Assembly: GCA_963724765.1 (NCBI GenBank)
Contig: CAVRVY010000001.1
Location: 1,120,001-1,184,000, forward strand
Source of the DNA: an uncultured delta proteobacterium
GTDB taxonomy: Bacteria; Desulfobacterota; Binatia; Binatales; Binataceae
Length of the DNA: 64,000 nucleotides
Reading direction: 5' to 3'
The position numbers and the translations under genes are program-made. How positions within the stretch are numbered: position 1 is the first letter of the stretch; each line of letters opens with the position of its first letter. The notes beneath the pieces were generated by a model, which was given only the letters and a program-made list of their open reading frames with translations, ran no database searches and was not told where the DNA came from. Below are positions 4,921 through 16,137 of the stretch, in pieces.

Positions 4921-5260
4921 CCTGGCCGTGATCGTGCTCGCGGCGGCCGCGCTCGTGATGGGAAGTAACAGGATCGGGGCGCAGGAGCAGCCGCCGCCGG
5001 ATTTGCGGATGTTACTGAATCTCGATCTATTCAGGCCACACCCGCCGGACGCCAACAGCGGCGGGGCCGGGGAGTCGTCGAACAACTCGATGCTCGATCA
5101 GATCCGCACGCTCAAGGCGATGGGCTATCTGCGGGGGAACTCGCAGGGTTCGGACGATGCTCATGAGCCGGACGATGCGGGCGACAGCGCGTCGCCCGTC
5201 AGTGGCGCTCGGGCGACGACCCCAAACATGCCGCCCAAAGACTCCGAGGGACAGCCATGA
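4904..5260 (+). CDS. hypothetical exported protein in the ECF operon
   Basis: Overlaps the anti-sigma stop, has a signal peptide-like N-terminus, and has an ATGA overlap with the next gene. Confidence 0.7.
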   Translation: MRTGRSLAVIVLAAAALVMGSNRIGAQEQPPPDLRMLLNLDLFRPHPPDANSGGAGESSNNSMLDQIRTLKAMGYLRGNSQGSDDAHEPDDAGDSASPVSGARATTPNMPPKDSEGQP

Positions 5261-5844
5261 CCCGCCGCACGCCAGGGCTTTCGATCGTGCTGGCGGCGGC
5301 AATCGCGCTGGGCGCGCTCGCGCGGCCGGCGCGCGCGCAGTCACCCGGGCAGGAACCGCCGATGGCGGCGGATCAGCCGCAGAACGCCGCCGAGCGTGCG
5401 CTCGCCACGCAGCATCCCGACGCCTGGGCGAGGCTGACGCCGGAGCAACGGGCGCGTGTGCTCCAGAATTACCGGCAGTGGCAGAAGATGACTCCCGCGG
5501 AGCAGGGCGCGGCGCGGCAAAACTTCCAGCAGTTTCGCAGTCTCCCGCCCGAGGAGCGCCAACAGGTGCTGCAAGGGCTGCATCGATGGCGCCAGCTTCC
5601 GCCAGAGCGCCGCGAGCAATTGCGCCAGGCCTACGCGCACTATAGGCAGCTTCCGCCTGAGCAACGGCAAAAGGTCTTCCAGCGCTATCAGCAGTTCCAG
5701 CGGCTTCCTCCGGCCCAGCGTCAGCACATGCTTGAGAACTATCATCGCTGGCAACAGATGACGCCCGAGCAGCGCAAGGCCGCGCGCGTCCGCTGGCGTC
5801 AGTTTTACCCCAAGCACGCGCCCCCGCTAACGAAAATTCCGTGA
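5257..5844 (+). CDS. DUF3106-like helical repeat periplasmic protein
   Basis: Signal peptide followed by about seven 18-aa repeats of W/F/Y-x-x-L/M-P/T-P-E/A-Q/E-R/Q. Confidence 0.8.
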   Translation: MTRRTPGLSIVLAAAIALGALARPARAQSPGQEPPMAADQPQNAAERALATQHPDAWARLTPEQRARVLQNYRQWQKMTPAEQGAARQNFQQFRSLPPEERQQVLQGLHRWRQLPPERREQLRQAYAHYRQLPPEQRQKVFQRYQQFQRLPPAQRQHMLENYHRWQQMTPEQRKAARVRWRQFYPKHAPPLTKIP

Positions 5845-12948: not shown

Positions 12949-13758
12949 TCAATCCTTCGAGCTGTAGCTGACCCCGAGCCCGGCGCGCGCGTCCTGCTGG
13001 ATCCCGTACTGCGGAATCGGATAGCGCAGGCCGTTGGCGGCCAGGCGCTTCAATCCTTCGATCGTTTTCGGCAGGTAGCGCGGCGGAATCGCCATCAGTA
13101 GTTCGTCGTCCAGCACGCCGCCGTAGCGGCGCTCGGCGAAACACGGAATTGAGACGCTCGGCTCGCCGGTCTTGAGCGCGCGGCCCCACGAGTCTGCGCA
13201 TGCCGACTCGCCGACGCATCCCCACTGAAACTTCTTGTAGCCCGCCCACTGCAGGCCATTGATGAAGATGATCATCTGGCCCGGCGTTCCGTAAATCAGG
13301 CAGATGTCGGGCGGGTTGAGGCGACCCGAGGTCAGCGGCGAGACCGCCATCGCGGCGTACTTCCCGTGAGGCACGACGTCCATCGCATGCTGATGGGCCG
13401 AGGAATCCTCCACCGTCGAGTACCATACGCCGGCCATCTGCTTGCCCGAGAGCCAGTGATCGTCGGCTGGTTGCAGTCCGATCACCACCGCGCATTGCGC
13501 GCCGACCAGGTCCTTGGCGGTGATGCCTACGGTCCAGCCCAGGCGTGCGGCCTGGGCGACGATCTGATCGGTGGTGTGGATCGACTTTGGCCGGCGCAGC
13601 TTGGGAATCTGCTCCATCTCCTCGACCGTGGCGAACAGTTTCATCCCGATCGGCGTGGTGCGGAGCCGCAGCAGGCGGTTGAGATCATCGACGATCTGGT
13701 TCCAGTCATACGATTCGGGTTCGGCGAAGCTCGCCGGCTCCGGGCGGGTCCGTTCCAT
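12949..13758 (-). CDS. DUF169 family protein
   Basis: LRTTPIGMK, GESACAD and SIPCFAERRYG...DELLMAIP motifs. GGAGG RBS. Confidence 0.8.
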   Translation of the reverse strand: MERTRPEPASFAEPESYDWNQIVDDLNRLLRLRTTPIGMKLFATVEEMEQIPKLRRPKSIHTTDQIVAQAARLGWTVGITAKDLVGAQCAVVIGLQPADDHWLSGKQMAGVWYSTVEDSSAHQHAMDVVPHGKYAAMAVSPLTSGRLNPPDICLIYGTPGQMIIFINGLQWAGYKKFQWGCVGESACADSWGRALKTGEPSVSIPCFAERRYGGVLDDELLMAIPPRYLPKTIEGLKRLAANGLRYPIPQYGIQQDARAGLGVSYSSKD

Positions 13759-13912
13759 CTGCTCTTACCTCCGGTGATGCGTTTTATACCACAGGCCGTC
13801 TGCCTCGCCACGAGGCGGCGGCGCGCGCCACGCGTTACGCGCCTACTTGCTGGCGCGCGTTGCATTGACTGTCCGCCGATGCGACCATAACGTCGATCGA
13901 GTGAGACGCGAA

Positions 13913-14278
13913 ATGGATAGACCGTTGGCACCGGCGGGGGGGTCGCGATTTCGATTAGCACCCTTCATCCTGTTCCTGCTGCTGTCCACGTTTGCGCTCA
14001 GTCTGCATGTTCAACTGGGCAGGTACGACCATCTCTCCAGCTTCTCCGGCAAGCACATACTCCACGGCGACCTCCGGCCTAACGGCGACAAACCCGTGCA
14101 AAATTTCGCCGAGGCACATGGCGCAACGGTTTCAGCGCTTGCCGTGAGCGTGTCACCGCATATAAGTTCGCTTTCGCGGTTGATCTCGAATACCGCTTTG
14201 CCGTCCTCCGAGACCTCAGTTCGCAAATTGTTAAGCTACCTTGCGCTGTTCGTTCGCCCGCCCCCAATTCTCCCCTAA
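13913..14278 (+). CDS. membrane-anchored small protein ending RPPP; candidate arrest/leader peptide
   Basis: N-terminal hydrophobic segment, His-containing linker, C-terminus LFVRPPPILP*. Confidence 0.6.
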   Translation: MDRPLAPAGGSRFRLAPFILFLLLSTFALSLHVQLGRYDHLSSFSGKHILHGDLRPNGDKPVQNFAEAHGATVSALAVSVSPHISSLSRLISNTALPSSETSVRKLLSYLALFVRPPPILP

Positions 14279-14459
14279 GCGACCAAATAGTCGCATTTGA
14301 AAGAATCGCCTGACGTGACCGATACCTGTCGGTCCGACATGTGGCGTATTTCCGCTATTTGCGCGACAGACGCTCCGGATGACGTCGGTGTCCGTGACCC
14401 GCGCAAACGCAAACGACGAGGGACGGTTCCCGAGCAGATTAAGGAAGGGCTTCACCAGA

Positions 14460-14744
14460 ATGGATAGCGTGAAGTTTAAGACGATCGAGATCTTCGAAGT
14501 TCCGAAGTGGGTGCGCAGACTAAGCGAGTGCAAAGGTTTGGTTCTTTTTCTGGCCTGGCTCGGATACGCGGCGTACGTGTCAGTCATCAACCACCTCGGA
14601 TGGCCTGCGAGTCATGAGCAATGGGACATCGCCCTGGTTGCGATTCTGGCCTTCGCTGCGGGATGGGCCTGTGTGCGGATCGGCTTTTGCCTGATCAGCC
14701 GCGCGCAGACCGAGTTGCATCGGGCGGGTAGGGATGTGCCTTGA
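14460..14744 (+). CDS. small two-TM membrane protein
   Basis: AAGGAAGG upstream, two hydrophobic segments. Confidence 0.55.
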   Translation: MDSVKFKTIEIFEVPKWVRRLSECKGLVLFLAWLGYAAYVSVINHLGWPASHEQWDIALVAILAFAAGWACVRIGFCLISRAQTELHRAGRDVP

Positions 14745-14784
14745 GTGATCGCTTCGACTGAGCGGGCAAGGAGGAATAGAAGAC

Positions 14785-16137
14785 GTGACTTCCACAGGCA
14801 TCGCTACCCTTCCGTACGTTGACGTTGCTTCGAAAATTGCACTCGCCGTGGCGGTGGGACTTCTCGTTGGTCTGGAGCGAGAATGGGCGCAAAAGGCGGT
14901 AGGGGCTCGGACCTTTGCAATAATTGCATTACTCGGGACGCTCACTTACCTGGTTTCTTCCGAGCTTCTGGTCGTCGCTTTTTGCGGAACCTTCCTGCTC
15001 GTAGTGCTTTTGAATATCAACCACCTGCTGAAGAATTGGCCACTCGATACGGCTAGTCCGGGCGCACCGCGCAAACGTGCGCGCGAGCCAGCGTACGTGA
15101 CTGATCGAGACTCGCCCCTGGAAATAACGACTTCTGCGGCGCTCGTGGTGACGTTGATGCTCGGAGCACTGATCGGACAGGGCCATTATTTCACCGCGAT
15201 TACGTCGGCCGTAGTGATGACAATGCTGCTCGCATGGAAGGAAGGGCTGTCTCGCTTCGCGGGCGGATTGCAGCCAGAGGAGATTCGTAGCGCAGTCCTC
15301 TTGAGCTTGCTTACTTTCGTCATCTATCCGCTGCTGCCGAACAGATTCATCGATCCGCTGGACCTGCTTAATCCAAAACAGTCGTGGCTCATCGTGGTCG
15401 TTATCGCCGGTCTCGGGTTTACCAACTACGTGATGCTGCGGCTTTACGGGACACGCGGCGTGTACTACGCCGCCTTCCTCGGCGGACTCGTCAATAGCAC
15501 GGCAACCGTAGCCGAGCTTTCGGGCCTCTTCAGAAACTTGGACGGTTCTACCTCACTTACTGTCGCCGTGATTATGGTCACCAGTGTCGCGATGTTCCTG
15601 CGCAATCTCGTGATCCTCGCGATCTTCGCGCCTGCCGCTGTCGGCACGGCGTTACTTCCGCTGACAGCGATGGCGCTCGCCGCGCTCTCGATAGCGTGGC
15701 TACATGCACAGCGGGAAGACTCTCGGATGTCGCCACCACTTGCTCTCTCGTCGCCCGTCTCGCCGCCGCATGTGCTGAAATTTGCCGCGATGTTCGTCGC
15801 CCTCGCCGCTGCGGGCACTCTCGCACAAATGTATACGGGTACGTTGGGCTTTTTGGCGCTCAGTATCGTTGGCGGGCTGGCGAGCAGCGCGAGCACGACG
15901 GCGACCGCTGCTGCCCTCGCCGCAGCCGGGAAAATAACCTCCAGCAATGCGGGTATGGCTGTCGTGCTCACTTCAATGGCGAGCGCCCTCGTCGATATGC
16001 CGATCGTTTACCGGCAGATTCGCGCCAAGGCCGTTTCCTACCGGCTGGCCGCTGTGTCGATGCTGGTACTCGTAGTCGGGCTGGGCGTCATGGCGCTGGG
16101 TCGTTCAGAAGGGCATTGGTGGCGTTGGCTTCGATAG
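14785..16137 (+). CDS. MgtC/SapB family membrane protein with DUF4010
   Basis: GLLVGLERE...GARTF and EITTSAAL (MgtC N-terminus), LPNRFIDPLDLLNP and GGLVNSTAT (DUF4010). AAGGAGG RBS. Confidence 0.88.
   Translation: MTSTGIATLPYVDVASKIALAVAVGLLVGLEREWAQKAVGARTFAIIALLGTLTYLVSSELLVVAFCGTFLLVVLLNINHLLKNWPLDTASPGAPRKRAREPAYVTDRDSPLEITTSAALVVTLMLGALIGQGHYFTAITSAVVMTMLLAWKEGLSRFAGGLQPEEIRSAVLLSLLTFVIYPLLPNRFIDPLDLLNPKQSWLIVVVIAGLGFTNYVMLRLYGTRGVYYAAFLGGLVNSTATVAELSGLFRNLDGSTSLTVAVIMVTSVAMFLRNLVILAIFAPAAVGTALLPLTAMALAALSIAWLHAQREDSRMSPPLALSSPVSPPHVLKFAAMFVALAAAGTLAQMYTGTLGFLALSIVGGLASSASTTATAAALAAAGKITSSNAGMAVVLTSMASALVDMPIVYRQIRAKAVSYRLAAVSMLVLVVGLGVMALGRSEGHWWRWLR

Follow-up and report, generated by a model that had tools for sequence, protein, structure and literature searches.

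A putative RxPP arrest-leader family preceding MgtC/DUF4010 membrane protein genes in uncultured Binataceae

The orfA locus

The window analyzed here is a stretch of 64,000 nucleotides (contig CAVRVY010000001.1, positions 1,120,001 to 1,184,000 of the forward strand) from the 5.4-Mb genome of an uncultured soil bacterium of the family Binataceae, relatives of which are labelled 'Candidatus Binatus' or 'Candidatus Binataceae'. Between positions 13913 and 16137 of this window lie three genes on the same strand: a 121-codon open reading frame (ORF), here called orfA, a small gene called tm2, and a gene for a membrane protein of the MgtC/DUF4010 type. We favor, with moderate confidence, the interpretation that orfA is the sensor leader of this three-gene operon, the translation of which would stall close to its own stop codon, for a time governed by a ligand or by the force of membrane insertion, and thereby set the expression of the genes that follow. 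Judged from sequence comparisons, the orfA family is a probable new member of the RAPP-like class of arrest leaders, distinguished by a sensor motif and a target that are both new. The features on which this interpretation rests are the following:

13913..14278, forward strand: orfA, 121 aa, start codon ATG at 13913 and stop codon TAA at 14276-14278; proposed arrest-peptide leader or sensor
13955..14038, forward strand: N-terminal transmembrane or signal-anchor helix of orfA, residues 15-42, with Arg residues before it
14054..14080, forward strand: HILHGDLRP, residues 48-56 of orfA, the best-conserved motif of the family (H-I/V-L-H-G-D-L-R-P)
14222..14266, forward strand: C-terminal block of orfA, R-x-(F/L)-L-x-Y-L-A-(L/R)-F-(V/F)-R-(P/A/G)-P-P, about 15 conserved residues
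14255..14266, forward strand: R-P-P-P codons CGC CCG CCC CCA, the proposed stall site
14279..14459, forward strand: spacer between orfA and tm2, 181 nt, untranslated
14460..14744, forward strand: tm2, 94 aa, belonging to no known family; two hydrophobic stretches are apparent from its sequence
14785..16137, forward strand: MgtC/DUF4010 membrane protein gene, 450 aa (Pfam MgtC PF02308, 5.7e-16; DUF4010 PF13194, 1.7e-43)

orfA encodes a conserved peptide with three conserved blocks

The original prediction started from a 121-aa ORF with an R-P-P-P three residues before its stop codon. Both the coordinates of this ORF and the position of the four codons (14255-14266) were confirmed, and the product ends in YLALFVRPPPILP, where R-P-P-P is followed by I-L-P and then the stop. 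Pairwise comparison of 14 distinct loci, to which the counts of loci below also refer unless another number is given, revealed 804, 724, and 1456 differences at the first, second, and third codon positions, respectively, of the ungapped block that runs from the transmembrane helix to HGDLRP, and 521, 313, and 930 in the ungapped C-terminal block. Third positions are thus about twice as variable as first or second ones. The codons of the motif arginine (CGC, CGA, CGT, or CGG) and of the prolines also turn over synonymously. This synonymous change and the excess at third positions argue that selection acts on the orfA peptide and not on the RNA sequence. On this comparative evidence, orfA is a genuine translated gene.

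It should be noted that orfA is frameshifted in one locus, L013 (the same as L027, in G755), at about positions 5240-5340, and that its C-terminal block and RPPP are found further on in a different frame. Either the assembly of that genome is in error here or the copy is broken.

An N-terminal membrane segment had been proposed from the sequence, and this proposal is supported by two predictions. AlphaFold2 places a helix at residues 15-42, with a mean predicted local distance difference test score (pLDDT) of 73, 91, and 74 for residues 11-20, 21-30, and 31-40, respectively, and the best 17-residue Kyte-Doolittle window of the protein reaches 2.31. Beyond this first helix, no confident fold was predicted by AlphaFold2 (mean pLDDT 59). 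The end of the helix, FALSLHVQL, is near-invariant in the family (FAL-x-LH-V/I-Q).

The region that follows had been described as a His-containing low-complexity linker. This description does not hold, as the region contains the most conserved motif of the family, HILHGDLRP (residues 48-56). Residues H48, L50, H51, G52, D53, L54, and P56 are invariant in the alignment of the close set of homologs (A5). In the broader alignment A7, made of the window protein and 21 profile matches (22 sequences), D53 is present in every sequence, and conservation reaches at least 90% at H48, H51, G52, and L54. The first His of this HxxHGD motif is separated from the Arg of RxPP by 64-70 residues, with a median of 66, in all 21 sequences measured; the stretch between the motif and the C-terminal block is poorly conserved in sequence while its length is kept. 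The window protein has no Cys and therefore no CXXC or CXXXC motif, H-x-x-H-G-D being conserved instead. We consider HILHGDLRP a candidate ligand- or metal-binding sensor that would be located on the outer side of the membrane. Across the members, the middle segment varies in hydrophobicity (Kyte-Doolittle 0.8-2.7), the window protein being marginal at 1.21, and some members of the family probably have a second membrane helix.

The original prediction had also suggested testing whether only the transmembrane and RPPP positions are conserved among homologs. Both are kept, but conservation extends over three blocks, namely the end of the transmembrane helix, HxxHGD, and the roughly 15 residues that lead to RxPP.

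The C-terminal motif follows the published arrest-permissive residues

Among the 22 sequences of A7, the C-terminal motif reads RPPP in 10, RAPP in 10, RGPP in one, and HPPP in one (P0017). The Pro-Pro pair is invariant in both A5 and A7, and the Arg is replaced only in P0017 (by His) and in P0007 (by Cys). All 14 loci retain R-x-P-P, and PPP is found in the window and in 10 other loci. The motif stands 2-8 residues from the end of the protein in the A7 sequences and 2-11 residues in the loci, and the length of the C-terminal block corresponds to the portion of a nascent chain that is lodged in the upper exit tunnel. An R(A/G/P)PP within the last 14 residues, together with a strongly hydrophobic window, is rare in this genome: of 48,556 frames that run from stop to stop over 60 aa or more, three have both. 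One of the three is orfA, and another is the CxxC-containing RAPP ORF described below.

These observations can be compared with work on known arrest peptides, which is cited here and below from parts of the respective sources. RxPP and R/HxPP motifs have been named, and R-A-P in the P site was reported to block peptide-bond formation with Pro-tRNA occupying the A site (PMC10951233). Peptides with RAPP are described as stalling with the third codon of the motif in the P site and the fourth in the A site, and their arrest, in the sections cited, was not relieved by elongation factor P (EF-P; PMC12992588). The same report found the Arg irreplaceable in all three peptides tested (ApcA, ApdA, and ApdP). 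At the second position of ApdA and ApdP, Gly was fully permissive or better, while Pro, Ser, and Asp were partly so (PMC12992588). In B. subtilis, arrest by the A132P variant of ApdP was nearly full (2.4 units, compared with 1.9 for wild-type ApdP), and in E. coli its values were intermediate (PMC12992588). Genetic screens of random libraries recovered RxPP with G, A, S, or P at the variable position, and bacterial proteomes are reported to show a strong avoidance of RAPP and RGPP, other than close to the C-terminal end of exported proteins of small size (PMC12992588).

The RxPP/HxPP spectrum of the orfA family matches these published arrest-permissive residues. Since its relatives carry RAPP or RGPP, the RPPP of the window can be regarded as the Pro variant of a family that has canonical motifs.

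orfA is the first gene of a conserved operon

The original prediction placed a protein with two transmembrane segments and an MgtC/SapB-DUF4010 gene downstream of orfA, and this arrangement was recovered in the form of the 94-aa tm2 and of the gene whose product matches both Pfam families. No Pfam or NCBIfam match was obtained for tm2. The MgtC/DUF4010 protein is not a Salmonella-type MgtC, as it scores far below the cut-offs of the NCBIfam MgtC equivalogs (18 bits against a cut-off of 214).

Collecting homologs and the genes that follow them, as had been suggested, revealed the same order elsewhere. In all 14 distinct loci with context, orfA comes first, on the same strand as the downstream genes, and precedes tm2 and/or MgtC/DUF4010, with only a stub of the latter in one case. 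The MgtC/DUF4010 gene follows in 13 of the 14 loci, with 58-84% identity to the window protein, and is better conserved than orfA itself (43-67% identity, tblastn). Directly after the leader, tm2 is found in seven loci, including the three with RAPP-type leaders (G816, G847, and G568), where its homologs show 34% identity (E 7e-9). As tm2 stands between the two other genes in these seven loci, all RAPP-type loci included, orfA-tm2-MgtC/DUF4010 is the ancestral unit. An untranslated gap of 88-198 nt follows orfA in 14/14 loci, whereas the gap between tm2 and the MgtC/DUF4010 gene of the window is 40 nt, an arrangement that resembles that of a leader.

The locus with the stub belongs to G568 (L030:5253-5444, reverse strand), where orfA, of the RAPP type, and tm2 are intact and 63 codons of the MgtC gene are left after them. 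About 19 residues at the start of this stub still resemble the MgtC N terminus, and a convergent gene for a solute-binding protein (PF13531, 1.2e-66) abuts it.

Promoter and start codon of orfA

An alignment of 10 loci revealed a conserved promoter of the sigma-70 type just upstream of orfA:

13865..13893, forward strand: sigma-70-type promoter, -35 element TTGACT at 13865-13870, 17-nt spacer, -10 element TAACGT at 13888-13893

Its consensus is TTGACY-17-TARCTT, and the TTGA of the -35 element and the T-A-n-n-n-T of the -10 element are invariant. A consensus promoter scan of the region reported no promoter; it missed this one because the -10 element matches at only three of six positions. The promoter ends 7 nt upstream of a GTG codon at 13901 and 19 nt upstream of the ATG at 13913. 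The start codon of orfA is uncertain, as the codon aligned with this ATG is Ile (ATC) in five of the 10 loci while the GTG is kept in nine, and orfA may start at GTG 13901 as an alternative to ATG 13913. With the transcription start placed from the alignment, the orfA mRNA probably has almost no leader of its own, i.e., it would be leaderless or nearly so. Gene callers were seen to run through the promoter, which yields false N-terminal extensions of orfA relatives.

The spacer and possible routes from a stall to the downstream genes

The 181-nt spacer had been described as structured. Folded alone, it is no more structured than shuffled sequences, of which 57 in 200 reach an equally good fold (z -0.52). 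When the stretch is extended to 14225-14480, it is more structured than its shuffles (z -3.17; none of 200 as good), and a long-range helix is present in both its minimum free energy structure and its centroid. A search of positions 13700-14900 against Rfam (E <=10) returned nothing but a chance match to a small nucleolar RNA (16 bits), and a terminator scan gave three terminator-like sites against 2.9 expected. The elements discussed below are the following:

14231..14259, forward strand: 5' arm of the long-range helix (14231-14237 and 14241-14259, codons LSYLALFVR-P), which pairs with 14447-14450 and 14458-14479
14447..14479, forward strand: 3' arm of the long-range helix, i.e., the GGGC after the AAGGAAGG Shine-Dalgarno-like run and the start and first six codons of tm2
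14315..14353, forward strand: conserved intergenic block, 39 nt, GTGACCGAT-n-TGTCGGTCCG-n-GTGGCGTATTTCC in the 10-locus alignment A3

The duplex formed by the two arms has a predicted energy of -24.3 kcal/mol, a value that 0.4% of 451 background windows equal or beat. Most of the 5' arm would lie under a ribosome whose P site held the second or third Pro codon.

A second route could involve Rho, for which the genome has a gene. In each of the 14 loci, the 78 nt with the highest C/G ratio (1.5-2.5) are found where orfA ends and rank within the top 0-6% of the 78-nt segments of that locus. At third codon positions, the ratio of C to G is 563:413 in orfA against 145:158 in the MgtC gene. Such a C-over-G tract fits Rho-dependent control.

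The conserved block at 14315-14353 holds a 6-bp inverted repeat, GACCGA-n6-TCGGTC, followed by GTGGCGTATTC. RNAalifold kept only three pairs in this block, without covariation. A repeated operator was considered and rejected, the block being present as a single copy in the genome, and the spacings and frames, checked by eye, do not fit a promoter of the sigma-70, sigma-54, or extracytoplasmic function (ECF) type or a small ORF. By eye, the block is not evident in the RAPP-type loci L034 and L035, and L026 has a similar stretch.

Comparison with known arrest leaders

CruR (Bp2923) of Bordetella pertussis is an exported 145-aa DUF2946 protein with a CXXC motif and RAPP, encoded upstream of the gene for the TonB-dependent transporter BfrG (PMC9426467). 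Its arrest, demonstrated in vitro (PMC12992588), is reported to prevent Rho termination and to be relieved by copper (PMC9426467). CruR and the orfA product are both small, are encoded by the first gene of an operon, and carry an N-terminal export or membrane signal. In both, a sensor motif stands at a fixed distance from an R-x-P-P that itself lies three residues before the stop, a long untranslated gap follows (162 bp for CruR and 181 nt for orfA), and the 3' end of the leader gene holds a tract rich in C over G. However, the sensor motif is HxxHGD in orfA and CXXC in CruR, the spacing is about 66 residues against 45 (PMC9426467), the second residue of the arrest motif is Pro in the window and Ala in the RAPP of CruR, and the cargo is tm2 and MgtC/DUF4010 instead of a TonB-dependent transporter.

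The orfA family is not part of DUF2946 according to Pfam. The model PF11162 matched none of 16 members at E <=10, did not match the window protein at E <=0.1, and gave no six-frame match in the genome at E <=0.01. A language-model search with orfA returned a 'DUF2946 domain-containing' cluster (0.93, with 85 shared features), which we treat as a lead only. Because of the missing Pfam match, orfA is filed here as CruR/CutF-like in its working and not as a member of the CruR family.

CutF of Rhodobacter capsulatus (cutFOG operon) combines a signal peptide with a CXXXC motif in the periplasm and with PPP at the C terminus (bioRxiv 10.1101/2025.02.05.636593; PMC9973294). A copper-induced stall, in which EF-P is involved, is reported to melt a stem-loop over the cutO ribosome-binding site (bioRxiv 10.1101/2025.02.05.636593). 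The signal sequence, a binding motif exposed to the periplasm (a candidate one in orfA), and a stall at a C-terminal PPP (a proposed one in orfA) are common to both, as is, in the window, a predicted helix over the start region of the next gene, and EF-P may take part in the case of orfA too. In contrast to CutF, the helix of orfA is not conserved (1/14 loci), the gap is much longer, the motif is made of His and Asp and not CXXXC, and the protein family and the cargo are different ones.

The comparison with CruR and CutF made in the original prediction was apt as far as the layout is concerned, with a localization signal, a His/Asp motif at a fixed distance, a stall motif near the stop, and a long intergenic region.

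ApdA, ApdP, ApcA, and seven upstream ORFs of Streptomyces lividans (PMC7897499, PMC10951233, and PMC12992588) resemble orfA in that each encodes a small secreted or membrane protein, precedes a regulated gene, and has a motif of the R-(A/G)-P-P type close to its C-terminal end, and the orfA family has true RAPP and RGPP members. However, orfA is followed by genes that do not encode Sec or YidC components, and its sequence is unrelated to these peptides outside the motif.

A link to the proline-codon leader mgtP of Salmonella mgtC had been drawn as well. In the mgtCBR operon of Salmonella, short leader ORFs (mgtM and mgtP) are reported to control transcription (PMC3641672). The likeness that remains is that of an MgtC-family gene located behind a proline-codon ORF that is thought to control it, and it is an analogy only, as the size and layout of the ORFs differ. 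The mgtM and mgtP ORFs are very short and lie in a long 5' leader with alternative stem-loops, whereas orfA encodes a 121-aa membrane protein some 20 nt from its promoter, and its cargo is of the MgtC/DUF4010 fusion type, not a Salmonella-type MgtC.

The same genome contains, outside the window, another ORF with the CruR-BfrG layout (contig 1, 1258614-1258973, forward strand; L057:315-674). It encodes 119 aa with an N-terminal hydrophobic segment and a C-A-L-C about 45 residues before an R-A-P-P, itself three residues from the stop. This ORF has no Pfam DUF2946 match and is located directly upstream of genes for a TonB-dependent receptor (PF00593, 1.2e-22), ExbB, and ExbD (L057:641-4533). From this layout, the lineage appears to use such leaders.

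Proposed mechanism

In the mechanism that we propose, transcription would begin almost at the orfA start codon, and the N-terminal helix would bring the nascent chain to the membrane. The ribosome would then stall on the last codons of orfA, where a polyproline component sensitive to EF-P may be contributed to the stall by the PPP, as in CutF. At this point, HxxHGD would be about 68 residues from the peptidyl-transferase center; this distance would place it beyond the exit tunnel and, in all probability, on the membrane's outer side. The duration of the stall would be set either by the binding of a ligand, probably a metal, or by the pulling force of membrane insertion, and a ribosome stalled on the last codons would raise the expression of the downstream genes. 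It could do so by masking the C-rich Rho-loading tract, as in CruR, or, in the window, by opening the helix that hides the next start codon, as in SecM and CutF.

In its full form, this proposal describes a transmembrane sensor-leader family that has not been described before, in which HxxHGD, held about 68 residues from the peptidyl-transferase center at the RxPP arrest, would respond either to a cation in the periplasm (Mg, Zn, Ni, Mn, or Cu) or to the force of insertion and thereby set the expression of tm2 and MgtC/DUF4010. We regard this full form as possible but put it forward tentatively.

Evidence against a sensor leader and alternative explanations

Several observations weigh against orfA being a sensor leader of this kind. 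As for the route through a start-site helix, the pairing probability between the start region and the stall zone is 0.53 in the window (L001), 0.39, 0.29, and 0.18 in three other loci, and at most 0.04 in the remaining 10, and, in terms of duplex energy, one of the 14 loci ranks among the best 5% of its background, the median being 36%. One such duplex in 14 loci is not far from chance. A start-site-sequestering helix was thus rejected as a conserved feature of the family, since pairing and duplex energies fail in most loci. The C-over-G bias, for its part, is not independent evidence of a Rho utilization (rut) site, as it is largely a consequence of the Pro, Leu, Ser, and Phe content of the protein.

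The leader is not universal for these membrane proteins either, as G034 encodes an MgtC/DUF4010 ortholog (57% identity) without orfA or tm2 (L039, positions 1-1700); upstream of it, at a distance of about 115 nt, is the end of a gene for an ABC-transporter ATPase. As for the stall itself, RPPP was the weaker variant in two of the three reported contexts, being only partly permissive in ApdA and intermediate in ApdP expressed in E. coli (PMC12992588), and the genome encodes EF-P, which normally resolves PPP. The metagenome protein P0007 (a single-member cluster) ends in FVCPPP, with Cys in place of Arg; if the Arg is as indispensable here as in the published peptides, it should not arrest and would be a natural non-arresting variant, unless the sequence is in error. 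The sequences being related, the alternation of A, P, and G represents few independent changes, and the genomic context covers only three RAPP-type members. Finally, the whole length and all three motifs are kept, not the ends alone, which an ordinary small membrane protein would also explain.

Such a protein, with one or two helices, could be a subunit or assembly factor for tm2 and the MgtC/DUF4010 protein, RxPP being structural and any pause at it non-regulatory. Small membrane proteins are common in operons, and the searches for a conserved RNA switch (RNAalifold, pairing, and duplex tests) found none. In addition, the middle segment is hydrophobic in the RAPP-type members P0023, P0028, P0030, and P0032 (Kyte-Doolittle 2.1-2.7), which suggests a two-helix hairpin as in many small subunits. 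We nevertheless consider this explanation unlikely. The variable site accepts only A, P, and G between a near-invariant Arg and an invariant Pro-Pro, which is the arrest-permissive set, and RAPP and RGPP are reported to be avoided outside the C-terminal region of small exported proteins (both PMC12992588). Moreover, subunit genes are not usually separated by an untranslated stretch as long as the one behind orfA, and the protein has no confident fold past its first helix.

The pause could also depend on the prolines alone. Under a pure EF-P-dependent polyproline attenuator, the Pro codons would report EF-P activity or the supply of Pro-tRNA, as proposed for Salmonella mgtP and mgtL. PPP in the window and 10 other loci, the presence of EF-P in the genome, the EF-P dependence of CutF regulation at its C-terminal PPP (bioRxiv 10.1101/2025.02.05.636593), and the control of mgtCBR transcription by short leader ORFs (PMC3641672) would all agree with this explanation. 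The RAPP and RGPP relatives do not, as they have two prolines only and still keep the Arg; this speaks for R-x-P-P arrest, a mechanism described as refractory to EF-P (PMC12992588). A 121-aa product with a membrane helix is also unlike the very short Salmonella leaders, and we judge this attenuator quite improbable. Still less probable, in our view, is a pause that serves targeting, either as a transient stall, once the membrane helix has emerged, that holds the polycistronic mRNA at the membrane for the synthesis of the two downstream membrane proteins there, or as a slowing of translation for the correct insertion of orfA itself. Pause-dependent membrane targeting of an mRNA is known in eukaryotes from XBP1u. 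All three products of the operon are membrane proteins, the transcript appears to begin at orfA, and here too the lack of a conserved switch structure is in agreement. On the other side, no bacterial precedent was found in the literature examined, the fixed distance between HxxHGD and the stall site suggests sensing over mere tethering, and six of the 14 loci have kept the long spacer despite the loss of tm2.

Relation to published RAPP-type leaders and significance

Small exported RAPP and RGPP proteins encoded upstream of diverse genes, including genes for metal homeostasis, have already been described (PMC12992588). That survey, as presented in the sections cited, took only RAPP and RGPP ORFs and dropped downstream genes annotated as 'unknown'. 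RPPP members therefore fall outside its scope, and RAPP members that precede the unnamed tm2 may also have been excluded. Its main text and the searched part of its supplement contain no mention of MgtC or DUF4010, and the latter none of SapB, although its gene lists may still hold RAPP-type members. DUF4010 had a single, unrelated mention in the literature searched, and none of the matches listed joined MgtC with arrest peptides. New to this class, with the mechanism taken as probable, are the family, the HxxHGD sensor motif in place of CXXC, and the MgtC/DUF4010 cargo.

RAPP-like leaders are known beyond protein export, mainly in copper and TonB systems, and the orfA family would add a new cargo to these. 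The alternation of RPPP, RAPP, and RGPP within one family, in an otherwise constant context, provides a natural set for studying how the second residue affects the strength of arrest and its sensitivity to EF-P. A leader with an extracellular stimulus would also hint at what MgtC/DUF4010 proteins respond to; if this holds true, it would be the first clue to the regulation and ligand, and hence to the function, of DUF4010, and MgtC-family genes would have come under proline-based leader control twice, independently.

Distribution of the family and neighboring gene

Two clear homologs of orfA with open frames were detected among 61 related genomes, and a search of 5.8 billion proteins yielded 15 orfA-like proteins; further loci came from scans of genome and metagenome contigs. 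The gene is present in 12 of 165 Binataceae genomes, in addition to rare metagenome sequences. A class-level sample contained it in 7 of 401 genomes, all of one family, and a phylum-wide sample of 401 genomes gave no match beyond the window's own genome. The family is narrow (uncultured Binataceae), which limits its practical reach.

A profile built from 16 members and searched against 1.84 billion representative proteins retrieved 26 proteins at E <=1e-3 and 21 at E <=1e-10. Left out of A7 were P0019, P0020, and P0029, which match the N-terminal part of the profile only, the frame-broken P0014 and P0015, and P0039 (1226 aa, E 6e-5), a long chance match. Loci L004-L008, L016-L018, and L022 were considered as homologs and dropped, their weak matches being due to chance or out of frame. 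Neither orfA nor tm2 has an NCBIfam name. A protein-atlas look-up of orfA returned unnamed clusters only, with DUF2946-like (0.93) and CzcI-like (0.92) clusters as weak leads, and that of tm2 returned nothing useful.

The gene upstream of orfA is located on the opposite strand:

12949..13758, reverse strand: DUF169 gene

A DUF169 gene is also present in the loci of three other species (L003/L015, L011, and L014), with only 23-24% identity to the copy of the window. It is divergent from orfA in the window and in L003, the sole relative locus inspected for orientation.

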